A program made the translations under genes and the position numbers. A model generated the notes under the pieces. The model had not been told where the DNA came from. It ran no database searches and saw only the letters and a program-made list of their open reading frames with translations. From Anaerolineales bacterium (GTDB lineage Bacteria > Chloroflexota > Anaerolineae > Anaerolineales > E44-bin32), in the NCBI GenBank assembly GCA_041821665.1, contig JBGUDT010000003.1:71403-112326 (forward strand): a stretch of 40,924 nucleotides of DNA, written 5' to 3'. This document shows, piece after piece, positions 28,638 through 36,420 of this stretch. Every line of letters starts with the position of its first letter. The stretch's first letter is position 1.

Positions 28638-31052
28638 ATGCGTGACTTGTCGATCCCAGCCAATGGTGCATACTCACTCCGGTTGAGTGCAGATGCAAGG
28701 TTGTCTTCCACCGATTACCTCAATGATCAAATCTGGGAGCTTATTCTGGGTGACACAGAACCACCTTCAATGGCGCTCCAGACGAGCTATGGTCTGCGGG
28801 CAAAAAAAATGATGATCTTCCCAGGATTCAGCTGGGGGACAAAAAGTGTGACCAACCCTCAGCAATTTACAGAGCCTCCCGTGGTTCGAACTGCGCTGTC
28901 GAATTATGCACGTCTCACACTTAAACCCTTTGATGAGCTTGAAGTTACAGCTGAGTATTGGATCCCGGACTCACACACAGCTGCAGGTCGAATAACAGTC
29001 CATCACCTCGGGGATGAGCCACGTGAGTTGTTTCTTCGTCTATTCACTGTGCTGCAGCCAGATGAAAATGGTCGTGTCATGGGTGCGGCAAACCATGCAG
29101 GGGTAATTGTTCTCGAGGGGGCTACCGGGGGTTTGGCGCCCGTATTGTTCTTGAGCGGCGGGGCAACTGTGGTTCAAGCTGCCTACCCCGCCGTGGGCGT
29201 TCAACAAATATTCGCGCCTGGTGTTAGCCGATCATGGACCTGGGTGTTGGCTAGCGAATCCAACAAGGAACAATCGTTCCAAAGGTGCAAGGAAATAGTC
29301 GGGGGTTCCTGGGATTCGGAAATCGCACGGGTCAGCTTGAAGAATGGATCTCTCATAGATATCGAAACAGGAAATCCCGAATGGGACGCAGCTTTCTGGA
29401 TGTCTCAAAAAGCCGTCCTGGGGAGTTCCCTCAGCCCAACGAAATCGCTTCCCCATCCTTCACTCGTGCAAAGCAGAATACCAGATAAGGGCTTTTCTTC
29501 AACCCTTCATGGCGAGGATTATCCCTCATCCTGGAGCGGACAGACCGCACATGAAGTCTTTCTTCCGCTCATGAACATCATCCCAGTCGAGCCTGAGTTC
29601 GCAAAAGGGGTAATTAGAAATTTCATACACGTCCAGGAGATGAATGGCTCCATCGATTGGAAACCTGGATTAGGCGGCCAACGAAATGGCGCATTATGTA
29701 CACCATTTCTAGCCGAAATTGCCTGGAGAATTTATCAACATTCTGAAGATAGAGAATTCCTCCAGGAGGTTCATGATCCCATCTATAAATTTTTCAAAAC
29801 TTGGTTTACGCAGCGGCATGATCGCGATGGTGATGGATTTCCTGAGTGGGATCATTCCCTGCAGTCTGGTTACGACGACTGGCCTCTATTTGCCCGCTGG
29901 ACAACCTGGGGGTGTGGCTTGGATATCTCGACGGCCGAGACATCCGATCTGGGAGCCTATCTATTCAAGGAATGCAATTCCCTGGCAGCCATGGCGTCTG
30001 AGCTAGAAAAGCATGAGCATCTCGAATGGCTGAACGCTCGAGCGGACATCTTGAGGGAATCTATCGAGGCAAGCTGGGGTGATGAGAGCCATTGCTATCA
30101 ACATGTCGATCGCGATATTCACAATTCACCCCAAGGTGAGATGTTGGGACATGGCGAGGGAACATTTGATTTAGAACTTGACCGCACTTTTGAGAATCCC
30201 GTTCGTGTGTATCTAAGATTTCGAGGTGAGCGCGACGGTGCGAAATCGATGAAGGTCAATATCCATACACGCGGTCCAAGAGGGGGAAAGCGAGTTGAGC
30301 GCCTCACTGCGAAAATGCTGGCGTGGTATTGGGAACTAGGAACAGTCACATCCGCAGGGGGGATGCGCGTTATCGACCGAATTGAGATCCGTGGGGTACG
30401 TGACGATATACAAACAGAAATCTGGATAGCCGATTACGCTCGTAGGGATTTGTCCAATCTCCTGCCTCTTTGGGCGGGTATTCCGGATGATAAAAGAGCC
30501 GATCTCCTTGTTAAAAGGACACTTCTCGATCCAAAATCATTTTGGCGGATGCATGGTCTCCCCCGCAGCCCTGCGACGGACCCCGCCTATGTATCTGATC
30601 GTGAGGACGGTTCCGGGGGGGTATCGATACTCTGGAACTCGATGATCGGCGAGGGTTTGCTTGAATACGGATTTCACGCAGAAGCTGCCGAGTTAGTCAC
30701 TCGTCTGATGTCTTCTATCGTCCACCAGTTAAAAATGGGCCATAGCTTTCGCGAGAGATATGATCCTGATGGGCAGATTGGATATGGTGAACGTGATCAT
30801 CTGGCTGGGATTGCACCTCTGGACTTATTCCTCCGCTCCCTCGGTGTAAGATTAATATCGCCACGGAAGGTATGGGTGTGCGCAGCAAATCCCTATCCAT
30901 GGCCGGTTGCCGTCCGTTGGAGAGGTCTTGAAATTCTCTGTGAGTTCGATAAAACCATTGTTGTCTTTCCCGACGGGGGCGTGGTTGAAATTCGTGACAA
31001 CGAACCGACATTGGTTGAGCAGTTGGACGAAAGAATTCAACTGGGCGAATAA
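28638..31052 (+). CDS. (alpha/alpha)6 glycoside hydrolase (GH63/MGH1 or amylo-1,6-glucosidase-like)
   Basis: D.EFLQEV, RHDRDGDGFPEW, SGYDDWP, N.MIGEGLLEYG, FRERYDP. Confidence 0.75.
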   Translation: MRDLSIPANGAYSLRLSADARLSSTDYLNDQIWELILGDTEPPSMALQTSYGLRAKKMMIFPGFSWGTKSVTNPQQFTEPPVVRTALSNYARLTLKPFDELEVTAEYWIPDSHTAAGRITVHHLGDEPRELFLRLFTVLQPDENGRVMGAANHAGVIVLEGATGGLAPVLFLSGGATVVQAAYPAVGVQQIFAPGVSRSWTWVLASESNKEQSFQRCKEIVGGSWDSEIARVSLKNGSLIDIETGNPEWDAAFWMSQKAVLGSSLSPTKSLPHPSLVQSRIPDKGFSSTLHGEDYPSSWSGQTAHEVFLPLMNIIPVEPEFAKGVIRNFIHVQEMNGSIDWKPGLGGQRNGALCTPFLAEIAWRIYQHSEDREFLQEVHDPIYKFFKTWFTQRHDRDGDGFPEWDHSLQSGYDDWPLFARWTTWGCGLDISTAETSDLGAYLFKECNSLAAMASELEKHEHLEWLNARADILRESIEASWGDESHCYQHVDRDIHNSPQGEMLGHGEGTFDLELDRTFENPVRVYLRFRGERDGAKSMKVNIHTRGPRGGKRVERLTAKMLAWYWELGTVTSAGGMRVIDRIEIRGVRDDIQTEIWIADYARRDLSNLLPLWAGIPDDKRADLLVKRTLLDPKSFWRMHGLPRSPATDPAYVSDREDGSGGVSILWNSMIGEGLLEYGFHAEAAELVTRLMSSIVHQLKMGHSFRERYDPDGQIGYGERDHLAGIAPLDLFLRSLGVRLISPRKVWVCAANPYPWPVAVRWRGLEILCEFDKTIVVFPDGGVVEIRDNEPTLVEQLDERIQLGE

Positions 31053-31380: not shown

Positions 31381-31461
31381 CTATGCATCATGCCCTTTGG
31401 CATGTATCTAAGGTGAACCTGGCATTAAGATTGACGAAGCCCAAAAATAGCTTCAGGAACA

Positions 31462-32046
31462 TTATCGATCTAGTGGTTCTCGGCTGAAGCTTTCGACATT
31501 GTAAGTAAGAATCTCTAGCTCCTCGGAGCGCCAGGCGTCCTGGGGCAAATTTGCCTTGAGACATAATCTCGATAAAAAGTCTTCAGCGTCCTCAACTTTT
31601 TTCCATACCTGCGGCAGGAACGTCGCCCTTCGGACCCCTTTCTTCACGATGACGCCGTCGACCCCCGGCTTCAGGCGATTAAGTAGGTCTTCTGATGAGT
31701 TGTACAGCAATATCTCAGGGGTTGTGAGCACAGATACTTCTGTCTCAATCAGATCAATTTCTTCAAGAGTGACCGTCGGGAAGCGGGGGTCGCGCAGTGC
31801 AGCCGAGGAGGCGTTCTTGGTCACATCCTCGGCGAGTGGAAGCTTGGCTTCGATTGTCCCCATACAGCCGCGCAATTGCCCCCCGATGTTCAGAGTAACA
31901 AAAGATGCGCCGGGTTCAGTGAGTCGTGGTGGGAGAGCTGTATGATCAATGGAGGGTAGCGAACCTTCGCCAACAGAAGCCACGATTGCCGCATTGGCAA
32001 GGTTGAGCAAGATATCTCGTTCCTCTGAACGCAATCCTATGGACAT
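31462..32046 (-). CDS. amrA: AmmeMemoRadiSam system protein A (AMMECR1 domain)
   Basis: ASFVTL, LRGCMGT, DPRFP, EVSVLT, ATFLPQVW, LCLKA; start moved to MSIGLR. Confidence 0.9.
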   Translation of the reverse strand: MSIGLRSEERDILLNLANAAIVASVGEGSLPSIDHTALPPRLTEPGASFVTLNIGGQLRGCMGTIEAKLPLAEDVTKNASSAALRDPRFPTVTLEEIDLIETEVSVLTTPEILLYNSSEDLLNRLKPGVDGVIVKKGVRRATFLPQVWKKVEDAEDFLSRLCLKANLPQDAWRSEELEILTYNVESFSREPLDR

Positions 32047-32194
32047 ATCGTCATCTTCTAGGACACCAACGGTATCACTTGAAGTATAGCAGAGCGTGGT
32101 GATGGTTTCATTTGGTGGGTGTATGGAGAGAAATGTTGGATATTTCAAACTCGTGCATACGTTAAACCCTGAGCTAACAGGGGTTATTCACGAA

Positions 32195-33127
32195 TCATGA
32201 TATGTGAGTATTCGATATCGCAGCTAGTATGGCCGGAGCGAAATCGGTGAGATCTTTCAAATTCTTTGAAAATTGGTCACGGGCATCGGCTGGTCCCACA
32301 AGCAAGGCCGGAACGAGATTGCGGGTATGTCCACGGATGCTGAGATTTTCCATGTTCCCATGGTCCGATGTAAGCACGATGAGATCTTCCCGTTCCTCCC
32401 AGGCTTTGAGAAGACCTCCCAGCATATCGTCAAACGCCTCCAGCAAATCAACCGCATCCGCCATGGATCCCTTGTGCCCGGCGATATCACTGGGCCAGAA
32501 ATCGAACCATGTAAGGTCATACGCTTCCGAGATTTCAGCGAGCATCAAACCGGCTTCATGCGATTTATATACAGGCGCAGGGGGAAAATCTGGCTGAGCG
32601 ACCCATCCCTCCCCGGTGAAATCCACGGACATGGCTCTTCCTTCTTGTAAGTCTTCCGCGGTCATGAGATCGATTCCTGCCGCAGTGACGGCAAGCGGGA
32701 TTGCCGAGTACAGCCGCCGACCAGAATCAATCATTTCAAAATAGCGTGGCGGGTAAGCATTGAGTAGAGCGGCCTTACCACCTTGCTTGGTGACGGCGTC
32801 AAAAATGTTCGATTCCTTGAGAATGGAAGCGATGGGGGGATTTGGTTTTGGACCGTAATGTCCCCCGGTCTCTGCAGGAACGTTGCGACCGGTGAGAAGC
32901 GCTGCCTGACCAGATGCTGATTGCGGAGCACCGTCGACTCCTAGGCATGCGTCCACACCCAGCAATGTCGCTTGGGCGCCATCGTAGGGTACAGATTCCA
33001 TGGTGACAGTCCTGCCCTCAAGGATACCTTTGAGATTGGGCATTCTCGCCACGGCGAAAGGATTATGCGCAGAATCTTTCGGACCCAGACCGATGCCATC
33101 GATGAAGAGGAAAAGCACCCGTGTCAT
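32195..33127 (-). CDS. Alkaline-phosphatase-superfamily metalloenzyme (phosphomutase-like)
   Basis: FIDGIG, PQSASGQ, DIAGH, TSDHGN, HTRN.VP; ATGA overlap with the upstream MTase. Confidence 0.85.
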   Translation of the reverse strand: MTRVLFLFIDGIGLGPKDSAHNPFAVARMPNLKGILEGRTVTMESVPYDGAQATLLGVDACLGVDGAPQSASGQAALLTGRNVPAETGGHYGPKPNPPIASILKESNIFDAVTKQGGKAALLNAYPPRYFEMIDSGRRLYSAIPLAVTAAGIDLMTAEDLQEGRAMSVDFTGEGWVAQPDFPPAPVYKSHEAGLMLAEISEAYDLTWFDFWPSDIAGHKGSMADAVDLLEAFDDMLGGLLKAWEEREDLIVLTSDHGNMENLSIRGHTRNLVPALLVGPADARDQFSKNLKDLTDFAPAILAAISNTHIS

Positions 33128-33687
33128 GCAGATTTCCGGGTGAATGTGAAGTATGCGGATTGTCTCGAACCATCCGTGCCGTGTTGTGTGGCAGTGAGGT
33201 CGAAGTCTAACGAGAATGTCTTCAGGATCTTATCCTCTGCGGGTATGCCGTCATCAGTGTTTGTTAGCCAGCTATAGAGCAGGTAGCTTCCACCAGGATG
33301 CACAACGCGCGAGATGGAGTTTTTATATTCCACTCTCTTATCCTCGTCGAGGTTATGAAAACAACCGATATCAAGGGCAAGATCAAAAGGCCCCGTGATC
33401 CCTTCGAGCCGGCTGACATCACCACGCTGCAAGTTCACGCTCACGCCTGCGGCTTTCGTTTTTTGTCTCGCCTGTCGGATGGCAAGGTAGGAGACATCGA
33501 TGCCCATGACGTCCCAACCCCGACTTGCAATCGTAATCAGGTTAGTGCCGGTGCCGCAGCCGAGGTCGATCGCCCGACCGGCATGATGTTGATCAAGGTG
33601 TGCGATCAGCTCAGGTGGGGAGATACCCGTATCCCACCTGGGAGATCCGAGCAGGTATTGGAGTTCGAAAAGGGCTCGGGAAATCAC
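33124..33687 (-). CDS. Class I SAM methyltransferase (TPMT/thiol-MTase-like)
   Basis: PRWDTGISPPEL, DLGCGTG, GIDVS, DIGCFH; start set at GTG 33687, a GTGA overlap with the thioredoxin stop. Confidence 0.85.
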   Translation of the reverse strand: MISRALFELQYLLGSPRWDTGISPPELIAHLDQHHAGRAIDLGCGTGTNLITIASRGWDVMGIDVSYLAIRQARQKTKAAGVSVNLQRGDVSRLEGITGPFDLALDIGCFHNLDEDKRVEYKNSISRVVHPGGSYLLYSWLTNTDDGIPAEDKILKTFSLDFDLTATQHGTDGSRQSAYFTFTRKSA

Positions 33688-34169
33688 TTCAGAGTTTCCA
33701 TGGTTTGACGCACGCGCTCGGGATCGACAGCCCCTGTCGTCTGCCATAGTTCCTCACCGGCGCCATCAATGAAAACGAACGTGGGTGTGTATTGGAAACC
33801 ATATTCTTTCATGAGATCGCGATTTTGCTCATCCTGCACATTGAGGTGGAGTATCAGGAGTTCGTTCTGAAACTCGATTTCCAGCCCATCCACGATGGGC
33901 TTTGCGGCCATACATGCCATTCAATATGGGCTTTGAAATTCGATGAGGATCGGCGTCCCGCTGCCAATTAACTCTCCGGGTGTCTCGTCATCTGAAAGTG
34001 TGGAGTCACCAGGATTGAACAGAATAATTGCAACGGCGACCCCGAGAAGAAGCGCAGCCAGGGCAATGAGCTCTCGCTGCCCCAGACCATTTCGCAAGAA
34101 GTAAACGAGCAAAACGAAGAATATGATGATGGCCATCAAGGCGAAGGAGTACTGATTGATGAATTGCAT
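33684..34169 (-). CDS. Membrane-anchored thioredoxin-fold protein with in-frame UGA (probable selenoprotein, UxxC)
   Basis: ORFs 33921..34169 and 33684..33920 are contiguous and in frame: ILIEFQSPY-(TGA)-MACMAAKPIV...YTPTFVF; two N-terminal TM helices; RBS GAGG before ATG 34169. Confidence 0.85.
33881..33907 (-). promoter_or_regulatory. Putative bacterial SECIS element
   Basis: Perfect stem AGCCCATC-GTG-GATGGGCT starting 20 nt after the UGA; G-initiated loop ~27 nt downstream. Confidence 0.7.
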
Positions 34170-34192
34170 CGTAACCTCACGAGCTTTACATG

Positions 34193-34201
34193 ATTCTATC
34201 A
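34193..34201 (-). promoter_or_regulatory. Extended -10 promoter of the thioredoxin operon
   Basis: TG-A-TAGAAT about 24 nt upstream of the ATG. Confidence 0.5.
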
Positions 34202-34277
34202 CCTTCCAAACCCTTGCCAGCGAAGAGGGTGAGAGTGAAGAAAATGTATTAAAATGTAATCGATTAAGTGAAAGTCT

Positions 34278-34306
34278 TTGACAAGGACCACCTCCTCCTT
34301 TACAAT
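34278..34306 (+). promoter_or_regulatory. Sigma70 promoter of EF-G2
   Basis: TTGACA-N17-TACAAT. Confidence 0.8.
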
Positions 34307-34344
34307 CGACAAATCTCAATTCACCAGCGAAGGATCCCCATTAA

Positions 34345-36420
34345 ATGAAAGAATACGCAACCGATTCGCTCCGCAACGTCGCGCTTGTATCCCACGGCGG
34401 TGCAGGAAAAACAATCTTGGGTGAAGCCATGCTCTTTTCGACAGGCGTCACCACAAGAATGGGTAAGATCGACGAAGGTAACACTGTATCCGATTTTGAA
34501 GACGAGGAAATCCGAAGGGATTTGTCCCTTTCAACGGCGATTCTCCCGGTAGAGTATCGTGATAAAAAGATCAATGTGCTCGACACGCCAGGCTACACTG
34601 ACTTTGTGGGCGAGGTTATCTCAGCATTAAGTGTCGCAGATGGCGCCATTGTCCTGGTCGAATCCGTAGCGGGGATCGAGGTCGGCACAGAGATCGTCTG
34701 GGAGTATTGCGATAAATTTAAACTTCCTCGTTTCGTGGTCATCAGTAAGTTAGATCGTGAGAACGCGAATTTCCAAGCGGTTCTAAATTCTTTGAGTCAA
34801 TTATCGGTGGACACTACATTCATTCCGGTCCAGCTGCCATTGGGCGAGAAGCAGGATTTCAAGGGTGTCATCGATTTGTTCAGTATGAAGGCTCGGCCTG
34901 GACAAGGTAAGGATGCAGAAGCCATCCCCGACGAGTACACCGATGTCGCCGAGGAGGCGCGTGTCAACCTCGTCGAAGCTGCGGCTGAAGGAGATGACGA
35001 CTTACTTGAAAAATATTTGAATGGTGATGAACTCTCCGCTCAGGAAGTGGCTGATGGCTTTAAATCTGCTGTACAGTCGGGACAGTTTGTGCCCGTGTTT
35101 GTGAATGCGGCTCATGATGCGACAGGTGTTTTCCCCCTACTGGATGCCATCGTCGATCTGATTCCGTCTCCCTCAGATGTAGCACCCATTGAAGCAGGAG
35201 GTGCATCGGGCACCGAAGAACTGGTGGCGTCCGATGCGGGTCCGCTGGCAGCCTATGTTTGGAAAACGACTGCTGATCCATATGTCGGGAAAATCACTTA
35301 CATGCGTGTGGTTTCTGGAACCTTATCATCGGACAGTCGTGTCTGGAACCACAGCCGGGACACCGAAGAACGATTCGGCACACTACACCTGATGCGGGGC
35401 AAGGAACAGCTTCCTGTTTCCACCTTGCATGCGGGGGATATCGGCATTATCGCGAAGTTAAGCGAGACCGAAACCGGGGATACGCTTGGGGATAAGGGAC
35501 ATCCCGTGACAATTACTCCTCCGGAGTATCCCAATGCGCTCTTCTCGGTGGCGGTCCATCCAAAGACTCAGGCAGATGCGACCAAGATCAGTCCATCATT
35601 GACGCGGCTTTCGGAAGAGGATCCTACGCTCTCGTGGCATCAGGAACCGAGCACGAACCAGACGATTCTCCAGGGCATGGGAGATCAACATATCGATGTG
35701 GCTATCCGAAAAGCAGAATCAAAGTTCCAGGTTGGTCTCACCACCGAAATTCCAAAAGTTCCCTATCGCGAGACAATTACCAAAGAAGGCCACGCCCAAT
35801 ATCGCCACAAGAAGCAGACCGGGGGCGCCGGGCAATTTGCCGAGGTGCACCTTACGGTCGAGCCGCTTGAGGATGAGGACTTCGAGTTTGTGAACAAAGT
35901 ATTCGGTGGATCCATATCACAGGGGTATATGCCCGCAATCGAGAAGGGTGTGCTTGGAGTGATGAAGCAGGGGGTTGTAGCCGGATACCCGCTTGAGAAT
36001 GTGCGTGTCCTCGTGACAGACGGCAAGGAGCATCCAGTAGACTCTAAGGCGGTCGCCTTTGAGACTGCTGGTCGGGAAGCTTTTAAATTGGCTGTAAGAC
36101 AGGCCTCACCGGTGATGTTGGAACCGATCATGGATTTACGCATAACTGTGCCGGAAGCAAACATGGGCGATGTCCTGGGAGATCTCAATACACGTCGGGC
36201 TCGGGTCCAGGGCATGGAAAGCGACCGTGGGAAGAGCGTGGTGACCGCCCAGGTGCCTATGGGGGAGATTCAGCGCTACACCACAGATATCCGATCAATG
36301 ACAGGAGGGCGAGGGTTGTTCTCCATGTCCCTCAGTCATTATGAGGTCGTACCTGCACATGTCACGGAAGCGATCATCGCCGCGAGAGATAAAGAACTCA
36401 GCAAGCAGGAAAGCGAATGA
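34345..36420 (+). CDS. fusA: Elongation factor G paralog (EF-G2 type)
   Basis: Full-length EF-G architecture (KKQTGGAGQFA, H.VDS, YTTDIRSMTGGRG); divergent G-domain (HGGAGKT, RDLSL, DTPGY, SKLD); not in the str operon. Confidence 0.93.
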   Translation: MKEYATDSLRNVALVSHGGAGKTILGEAMLFSTGVTTRMGKIDEGNTVSDFEDEEIRRDLSLSTAILPVEYRDKKINVLDTPGYTDFVGEVISALSVADGAIVLVESVAGIEVGTEIVWEYCDKFKLPRFVVISKLDRENANFQAVLNSLSQLSVDTTFIPVQLPLGEKQDFKGVIDLFSMKARPGQGKDAEAIPDEYTDVAEEARVNLVEAAAEGDDDLLEKYLNGDELSAQEVADGFKSAVQSGQFVPVFVNAAHDATGVFPLLDAIVDLIPSPSDVAPIEAGGASGTEELVASDAGPLAAYVWKTTADPYVGKITYMRVVSGTLSSDSRVWNHSRDTEERFGTLHLMRGKEQLPVSTLHAGDIGIIAKLSETETGDTLGDKGHPVTITPPEYPNALFSVAVHPKTQADATKISPSLTRLSEEDPTLSWHQEPSTNQTILQGMGDQHIDVAIRKAESKFQVGLTTEIPKVPYRETITKEGHAQYRHKKQTGGAGQFAEVHLTVEPLEDEDFEFVNKVFGGSISQGYMPAIEKGVLGVMKQGVVAGYPLENVRVLVTDGKEHPVDSKAVAFETAGREAFKLAVRQASPVMLEPIMDLRITVPEANMGDVLGDLNTRRARVQGMESDRGKSVVTAQVPMGEIQRYTTDIRSMTGGRGLFSMSLSHYEVVPAHVTEAIIAARDKELSKQESE

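Follow-up and report, generated by a model that had tools for sequence, protein, structure and literature searches.

Selenoproteins of the thioredoxin (Trx) fold that carry selenocysteine (Sec) at the first position of a UxxC active site have already been catalogued, both among thioredoxins (PF00085) and among thiol:disulfide interchange proteins (PF13098). In the available part of that catalogue they are accompanied by Cys-type orthologues and by a bacterial selenocysteine insertion sequence (bSECIS) directly after the UGA codon (PMC13188914). A bSECIS has been defined by an apical loop of 3-9 nt, a stem of 4-16 bp, a G in the first two loop positions, a distance of 16-37 nt from the UGA and a minimum free energy of -7.5 kcal/mol or lower (PMC13188914). 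Membrane-tethered Trx-like domains with a hydrophobic dipeptide inside the CxxC motif are represented by the C-terminal domain of DsbD and by proteins of the ResA/TlpA type. In addition, selenium-dependent, translation-coupled transcription has been measured for fdhF-Sec in Treponema primitia (PMC3892789). The locus considered here is a three-gene operon in a genome of an Anaerolineales bacterium (190 contigs, 84.65% complete). It lies on the minus strand of a 40,924-nt stretch (contig 3, 71403-112326), hereafter the window, whose numbering is used wherever no other contig or locus is named. The genes encode, in this order, a Trx-fold selenoprotein, a class I S-adenosylmethionine (SAM) methyltransferase (MT) and an alkaline-phosphatase-superfamily metalloenzyme. 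The operon is real and translationally coupled, and an in-frame UGA in its first gene is, from sequence comparison, very probably decoded as Sec. The explanation that best fits the whole, namely a Sec-containing Trx in a coupled operon in which MT and metalloenzyme would form the core and the Trx an outside-facing accessory, is considered reasonably likely.

Under translation table 11 the Trx gene is broken at TGA 33923..33921 into two open reading frames (ORFs). A DNA contig from run X1 (31400-34478) differs from the window at 15 of 3079 bases, none of them at 33921-33923, and an RNA-library contig (X18, 33886-34036) has the same TGA, so the codon is not an assembly error. Nor is TGA reassigned genome-wide, since all three operon genes end in TGA. 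The read-through product matches Pfam Thioredoxin_2 (39.4 bits, cut-off 27) and Thioredoxin (38.8 bits, cut-off 23.5) over residues 69-158, with alignments that run across the UGA, and the UGA falls on the first Cys of CxxC (local sequence SPY-U-MAC). The codon in this column is TGA in 58, TGC in 18 and TGT in five of 81 orthologues, counts that are not independent, as most loci come from one class and the locus sets overlap in some genomes. One row in these counts, in the tree described below, in the comparison of Cys-type hairpins, in the charge counts and in the counts of Trx loci and their neighbours outside the order is a locus (L084) from an unpublished genome (G077), on which no conclusion rests. 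All 24 sampled genomes of the genus carry a full-length Trx orthologue, 15 with one TGA and nine with none. A tree of 68 distinct orthologues requires nine Sec/Cys changes (bootstrap range 8-10), at least six of which are forced by well-supported branches. The genome also encodes SelA (458.5 bits), SelB (wing domain, 60.7 bits) and SelD (342.4 bits).

A SECIS-type hairpin, AGCCCAUC-GUG-GAUGGGCU, begins 19 nt after the UGA, with its loop 27 nt after the UGA, and lies within every one of the bSECIS limits of PMC13188914. Its folding energy is -12.9 kcal/mol (z -3.84), a stability that no sequence among 200 shuffles attains. Among 51 distinct Sec-type sequences, 87.5% of the pair cells are standard and four of the eight pairs show compensatory changes; the pair 28-36, for example, is A-U in 26 sequences and G-C in 23. 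This level of pairing and covariation was reached by 0/500 shuffles, and slid partners pair in 24-47% of cells. In Cys-type orthologues (22 distinct sequences) pairing in these columns is 41.5%, which equals the shuffle and slide controls. The hairpin thus goes with the UGA and not with the protein sequence; even the residues encoded across it change (P-I-V-D-G, P-V-V-D-R) in a way that preserves the pairing. A 50-nt segment after the UGA is common to a locus of the same genus (L015) and to locus L091. In two Sec-type loci (L097 and L164) the stems read CCUGUC/GACAGG or CCGGUC/GACCGG and Arg replaces Gly after the Asp, so that base pairing in the RNA seems to determine which residue is encoded at this position.

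The contrary view, that UGA 83 is a true stop, would leave an 82-residue membrane peptide and a separate 78-residue C-terminal fragment from ATG 33920. It agrees with the table 11 ORF calls and with the behaviour of public gene callers: of the four Trx relatives found in a collection of 5.8 billion proteins, three stop at '...QSPY', while the fourth (P0006) is full-length and reads SPYCMAC. Such a stop would, however, split the Trx fold at its active site, and it is contradicted by the Cys codon at the same column in 23/81 orthologues, by a covarying hairpin that occurs only in TGA forms and by the presence of SelA, SelB and SelD. A true stop is hardly credible against this evidence, and the database proteins that end at QSPY are a gene-caller artefact. 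The Sec-containing Trx of the original prediction has stood up well, through the Pfam matches across the UGA, the Cys-type orthologues and the Sec-specific hairpin.

Several other observations concern selenium in this genome and its relatives. The SelD gene (G000:C1:64278-65210, minus strand) has an in-frame TGA of its own, and SelD is probably also Sec-type. The only Rfam candidate for tRNA-Sec above the cut-off (47.4 bits) was rejected, as ARAGORN identifies it as tRNA-Ser (tga). A second Trx-like family with one in-frame TGA, and with the motifs U-G-T-C and U-S-T-C, is encoded just 3' of the metalloenzyme gene in three loci (L124:4756-5073, L146:3838-4116 and L154:4734-5051) and, in the source genome, on another contig (G000:C44:12198-12461, minus strand). 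In a database protein from a 981-nt public contig (P0008), the linker of the present Trx family is preceded by an ATP-synthase-c-like N-terminus (PF00137) and the sequence ends at QSPY; a chimera created in assembly is the probable explanation.

The predicted full-length selenoprotein (~17.5 kDa) opens with a short N-terminal stretch that holds a conserved NQYSF. Two hydrophobic helices follow (approximately residues 9-25 and 33-51), and beyond an acidic linker comes the Trx domain, which contains U83-M-A-C86 and the cis-Pro P129. Its place in the Trx fold is indicated by the scores above Pfam gathering thresholds, the CxxC-type motif and the cis-Pro, and S80, C/U83, C86, P91, P129 and G138 are invariant in 23 orthologues. 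Positively charged loops stay on the cytoplasmic side of a membrane (the positive-inside rule). In 68 distinct orthologues the loop between the helices has more Lys and Arg than both flanks in 41, an equal number in 11 and fewer in 16; the protein itself has two in the loop and none in the flanks, with five acidic residues after helix 2. Together with the positive-inside rule, this charge bias, which is the only evidence on topology, would place the Trx domain outside the membrane, and such a placement is held to be fairly probable. A DsbD_TM/CcdA homologue is encoded elsewhere in the genome and could feed an outside-facing Trx domain.

The TrxA equivalog TIGR01068 was not reached (41.8 bits against a cut-off of 96.8). 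The same is true of the NCBIfam models for Trx-like selenoproteins, of which TsoB scored 18.1 against 805 and SaoT, TsoX, HUIPC and VPGU gave no listed match at E <= 0.01. With the catalogued Sec-containing thioredoxins and thiol:disulfide interchange selenoproteins the protein shares the Trx fold, the Sec at the first position of UxxC, the existence of Cys-type orthologues and the bSECIS directly after the UGA, but the two-helix N-terminal anchor and the NQYSF start distinguish the present family from those in the available part of the catalogue (PMC13188914). Matches to the DsbD and ResA types are weak (NF001419 DsbD, 15.7 against 330; NF002854 ResA, 18.8 against 170); moreover, the anchor here consists of two helices and not one, and no cytochrome-maturation genes are adjacent. 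Because UxxC Trx-fold selenoproteins are already represented in the part of PMC13188914 that was available, the Trx family is a mis-annotated, family-level addition to them.

The three genes are linked by stop/start overlaps, GTGA at 33687..33684 between Trx and MT and ATGA at 33127..33124 between MT and metalloenzyme, and the junctions that the original prediction had described are thus borne out on the minus strand. A GAGG lies 8 nt upstream of the Trx ATG, and only a weak GGA precedes the MT start. For the MT, GTG 33687 is preferred over the upstream ATG 33747 because the corresponding residue is also the first in orthologues, where it is encoded by ATG, GTG or TTG within an NTGA. Overlaps of 4 nt are common in bacterial operons and are unremarkable by themselves, but those of the present operon are conserved. 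Of 60 loci measured at the Trx/MT junction, 43 overlap by 4 nt, four by 1 nt and one by 8 nt (48/60 overlapping in all); of 87 measured at the MT/metalloenzyme junction, 35 overlap by 4 nt and 14 by 1 nt. The two sets of loci have some genomes in common and are not independent. The Trx/MT overlap persists as ATGA, GTGA or TTGA in both Sec- and Cys-type loci. A promoter and terminator scan returned no terminator-like sites between the operon genes and three promoter-like sites, against 3.3 expected; a -35/-10-like site is present at 34220..34193. In the window, the Rfam scan gave no match at gathering scores and ARAGORN no tRNA. Contigs from RNA libraries contain pieces of all three genes (X18 at >=99%, X19 and X20 at 90-99%), although none crosses the Trx/MT junction and such libraries may contain DNA. 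At least half of the sampled words of the stretch are held by 17 DNA runs, labelled mainly as marine sediment metagenomes. Coordinates of the operon and its neighbours are collected in Table 1.

Table 1. Positions in the window of the operon genes, of the elements within the first gene and of the flanking genes.
Feature	Coordinates	Strand	Remarks
Trx-fold selenoprotein gene	34169..33684	-	161 codons; ATG 34169; stop TGA 33686..33684
In-frame UGA, very probably Sec, first position of UxxC	33923..33921	-	residue 83; Cys-aligned in orthologues
SECIS-type hairpin	33883..33901	-	8 bp; 3-nt loop starting GU
Class I SAM methyltransferase (MT) gene	33687..33124	-	187 aa; GTG 33687..33685; stop TGA 33126..33124
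Alkaline-phosphatase-superfamily metalloenzyme gene	33127..32195	-	310 aa; ATG 33127..33125; stop 32197..32195
AMMECR1 / AmmeMemoRadiSam system protein A gene	31462..32148	-	TIGR04335 196.3 bits (cut-off 99)
EF-G paralogue gene	34345..36420	+	divergent from operon; NF009381 890 bits; TIGR00484 628 bits (cut-off 659)

The second gene product is matched by Pfam Methyltransf_25 (68.9 bits), by TPMT PF05724 (41.7 bits, cut-off 26; profile positions 16-154 of 218) and by TehB PF03848 (23.5 bits, cut-off 20.4). The NCBIfam models for TehB were not reached (34.7 against 303 and 30.6 against 218), nor was ArsM NF008823 (24.4 against 263), and no curated equivalog was approached. A profile built from 16 orthologues found 6MRO and 8GDU first in the PDB (2e-32), followed by YtkW, Rv0560c, Ecm18 (4NEC), thiol methyltransferases and TehB. 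The predicted model (pLDDT 90.5) gave, in Foldseek, TM 0.85 for 6MRO and 0.81-0.86 for Ecm18 and Rv0560c. The entries 6MRO and 8GDU represent a structural-genomics target of Methanosarcina acetivorans without assigned function; the MT shares with it the class I fold and the PPWD and D-x-G-x-F-H motifs, but identity is 27-29% and a Leu of 6MRO is replaced by an invariant Cys109. The fold and the TPMT score above the cut-off also ally the MT with the small-molecule group of TPMT, TehB, Ecm18 and Rv0560c, from which it differs in reaching no curated equivalog. The description as TPMT-like, taken from the original prediction, therefore survives in part: PF05724 is above its cut-off, but Methyltransf_25 scores higher and neither TehB, ArsM nor any other equivalog is reached. 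The term is fair for the neighbourhood of the MT and not for the assignment of a substrate. The Protein Atlas offers only generic methyltransferase cluster names, and the limited library of literature that was searched, without supplements, holds no description of the function of the 6MRO family. Among 745 longer candidates no fused form of the MT was found at E <= 1e-15, which is weak evidence. A 358-aa Trx-MT fusion ORF in one locus (L064) was rejected as an out-of-frame open stretch upstream of the MT.

The third protein is closest, on its predicted model, to cofactor-independent phosphoglycerate mutase (iPGM). It matches PF01676 with 82.8 bits (cut-off 24.3), and its model (pLDDT 95.3) aligns with iPGM structures at Z 21.0 (rmsd 2.8 over 238 residues) and Z 19.8, with phosphopentomutase at Z 17.6 and with alkaline phosphatases and NPPs at Z 16-17. 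Seven positions are invariant in 20 sequences (D10, S70, D214, H218, D255, H256 and H267), and these are presumably the two-metal site and Ser nucleophile of the iPGM type. With their conservation and the PF01676 match, the assignment as a metalloenzyme in the original prediction holds. The core fold is common to iPGM and phosphopentomutase, and these Asp/Ser/Asp/His/Asp/His/His positions presumably are as well. The protein is shorter than iPGM, however (310 against ~510 residues), and a shorter insert takes the place of the cap (transferase) domain; only the C-terminal part of iPGM is matched, without the two-domain architecture, and the iPGM equivalog TIGR01307 is not reached (58 bits against 330.65). 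There are at least 4873 relatives at E <= 1e-10, named at most 'hypothetical', 'iPGM' or 'peptidase'.

The trio was found in order in 19 of the 20 loci of the best relatives, the twentieth being cut by a contig end. A scan centred on the MT, with one genome per species, returned at least 588 relatives, of which the best 80 loci were analysed; 79 of these are labelled as Chloroflexota lineages and nearly all belong to one class. The full trio is present in 30 of the 80 loci, MT and metalloenzyme without Trx in 22, the MT alone in 20 and Trx with MT in one, and in seven one side could not be assessed; two loci with inserts between the genes (L140 and L153) were scored as not adjacent. MT and metalloenzyme are thus adjacent in 52/80 loci. 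The conservation of the neighbourhood that had been anticipated, Cys-type orthologues included, is accordingly seen within Anaerolineae, in 19/20 and 30/80 loci, but the link is facultative and its parts are separable. The metalloenzyme occurs in 64 and the Trx family in 32 of 401 sampled genomes of the phylum. Within the order, several genera of a sister family have retained the trio, while one genus there has the metalloenzyme alone (6/6 genomes) and another has Trx and MT without the metalloenzyme. In a third exception, genus g20, MT and metalloenzyme are on one contig and the Trx lies elsewhere, beside an EF-G gene and then an arginase-family gene. Outside the order, the Trx is found without the MT in 12/12 loci and the metalloenzyme without the MT in all five loci examined. 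The operon is lineage-specific, and within the limited library searched, again without supplements, there is no description of a Trx-MT-metalloenzyme trio.

The divergent EF-G paralogue adjoins 61/80 of the MT-centred loci, which makes it a more frequent neighbour of the MT than either operon partner, and it stays beside the Trx where the MT is elsewhere. Much of the conservation is therefore inherited gene order. The MT-metalloenzyme pair occurs without an EF-G gene called nearby in at least five loci (L122, L144, L147, L151 and L157) and is therefore favoured as a functional pair. The constancy of the EF-G neighbour, along with weak generic matches of the MT to PrmC, PrmA and HemK2 models, could also be taken to mean that the MT acts on the translation apparatus, for example on this very EF-G paralogue, with the Trx and the metalloenzyme as passengers. 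Yet the two genes are divergently transcribed, the PrmC, PrmA and HemK2 scores are far under their cut-offs and the closest structures are small-molecule methyltransferases, while the adjacency is explained by shared gene order because nearly all loci come from one class; a role in translation is very unlikely.

A different function had been put forward in the original prediction, a route that would reduce and then methylate S, Se or metalloid substrates. Spelt out, the seleno-Trx would reduce a compound of sulfur, selenium, tellurium or arsenic (or reactivate the enzyme), the TPMT-like MT would then methylate that compound, and the operon would serve the detoxification or volatilisation of chalcogens or metalloids. 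The structural neighbours of the MT do include TehB, halide and thiol methyltransferases and the disulfide-methylating Ecm18, and both PF05724 and PF03848 exceed their Pfam cut-offs, but no equivalog cut-off for TehB, ArsM or another enzyme is approached, the best structure (6MRO) has no known function and the close Rv0560c methylates a heterocycle. The Trx/MT overlap in 48/60 loci and the retention of the trio in Sec and Cys forms would suit such a route. Against them stand the Trx missing from 42/80 MT loci and the 12/12 loci outside the order that have the Trx and no MT. An anchored Trx with an outside-facing charge bias also sits poorly with cytoplasmic SAM chemistry, and the scheme has no part for a phosphoesterase-type third enzyme. 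Reduction followed by methylation is accordingly regarded as unlikely. Selenium could instead act through expression: under scarcity, ribosomes would halt at UGA 83, re-initiation at the MT would be lost, early termination of transcription might follow and downstream expression would track selenium. The MT start overlaps the Trx stop behind only a weak GGA, 234 nt (78 codons) separate the UGA from the MT start downstream, and polarity behind a Sec codon has been described before, for fdhF-Sec of T. primitia (PMC3892789). There too a Sec-UGA is placed upstream of sequence possibly dependent on ribosome passage, but the effect was measured on the transcription of the selenoprotein gene itself (PMC3892789), whereas here an effect on downstream genes is a possibility. 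The Cys-type orthologues have the same overlaps, and the coupling is therefore not Sec-specific and did not evolve as a selenium sensor; the RNA-library contigs, which do not span the Trx/MT junction, cannot show levels. Gating by selenium is possible, although doubtful. A scheme that combines both ideas, a novel selenium-dependent pathway from a membrane-tethered seleno-Trx to a 6MRO/Ecm18-like MT and an iPGM-like phosphoesterase with the Sec codon doubling as selenium sensor, is quite improbable. If true, both enzymes would receive from the seleno-Trx either reducing power or a substrate, reduced sulfur or selenium, and the Sec codon would set the expression of both through translational coupling.

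The preferred explanation, a coupled operon with an MT-metalloenzyme core and an accessory Trx, can be set out as follows. On the comparative evidence the UGA is very probably decoded as Sec, by SelB working through the hairpin that lies 19 nt beyond it, giving a membrane-anchored Trx-fold oxidoreductase with a U-x-x-C active site. As the gene arrangement and its distribution show, this gene heads the operon, followed by the 6MRO/TPMT-like SAM-dependent MT and the iPGM-like phosphoesterase or phosphomutase, and the whole, beside the divergent EF-G paralogue, is an inherited block in Anaerolineae. Within the block the Sec/Cys state has switched repeatedly and single genes have been lost or moved. 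The MT and metalloenzyme would be the functional core, a cytoplasmic two-enzyme module that may methylate and de- or trans-phosphorylate a small metabolite. The seleno-Trx would be a facultative accessory, probably outside-facing. Its most likely role is that of a thiol/selenol-disulfide reductase outside the cytoplasm, supplied by a CcdA-type carrier, and presumably not that of electron donor to the MT. Several points weigh against this explanation. A tRNA-Sec was not found in the 84.65%-complete assembly, whereas it is present in 21/24 genomes of the genus (69-75 bits). The charge bias, on which alone the topology is built, is reversed in 16/68 orthologues, mostly distant ones. Among the nearest characterised structural neighbours of the MT are Ecm18, TehB and the halide/thiol methyltransferases, whose nucleophiles are sulfur, tellurium or halide, and the locus counts are not independent, since most loci come from one class. 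In addition, the conserved 4-nt coupling of Trx and MT (43/60 loci) could equally mean a real functional tie, which would speak for the pathway of the original prediction.

The AMMECR1 gene begins at least 46 nt downstream of the metalloenzyme gene, and an RNA-library contig (X19, 32062-32297) spans its 5' end and the 3' end of the metalloenzyme gene, so that it is possibly co-transcribed with the operon; it is a downstream neighbour in only 11/80 MT-centred loci and is not a conserved component of the cluster. The radical SAM partner of the AmmeMemoRadiSam system (TIGR04337, 266 bits) is encoded on another contig (G000:C11:28792-29808). No common theme emerges around the distant Trx orthologues, whose neighbours encode gamma-glutamyltranspeptidase, an MGH1-like glycoside hydrolase, cyclophilin and ABC ATPases, or downstream of the MT in loci that lack the metalloenzyme, where pentose-phosphate genes, a HemN-like gene and others are seen. 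Close to the operon (28638-31052, plus strand) the window encodes a protein of 804 aa whose domain is MGH1-like (mannosylglycerate hydrolase-type), and an MGH1-like hydrolase is a convergent neighbour of distant Trx orthologues in 3/12 loci (L082, L085 and L087); it may be a remnant of an older gene order or a hint of compatible-solute metabolism. A neighbour cluster of five loci (c10; 691-756 aa, no Pfam match) appears to consist of antisense shadow ORFs of EF-G.

The operon opens no long-standing question as yet, and the pathway idea stands as a proposal. As standard gene calling splits the Trx gene, genomes of Anaerolineales from marine sediments under-report this selenoprotein. The Trx family provides a clean SECIS case, in which a hairpin is constrained inside a coding sequence and Sec and Cys have been exchanged repeatedly, and the MT and metalloenzyme are a widespread Chloroflexota pair that is worth characterising.

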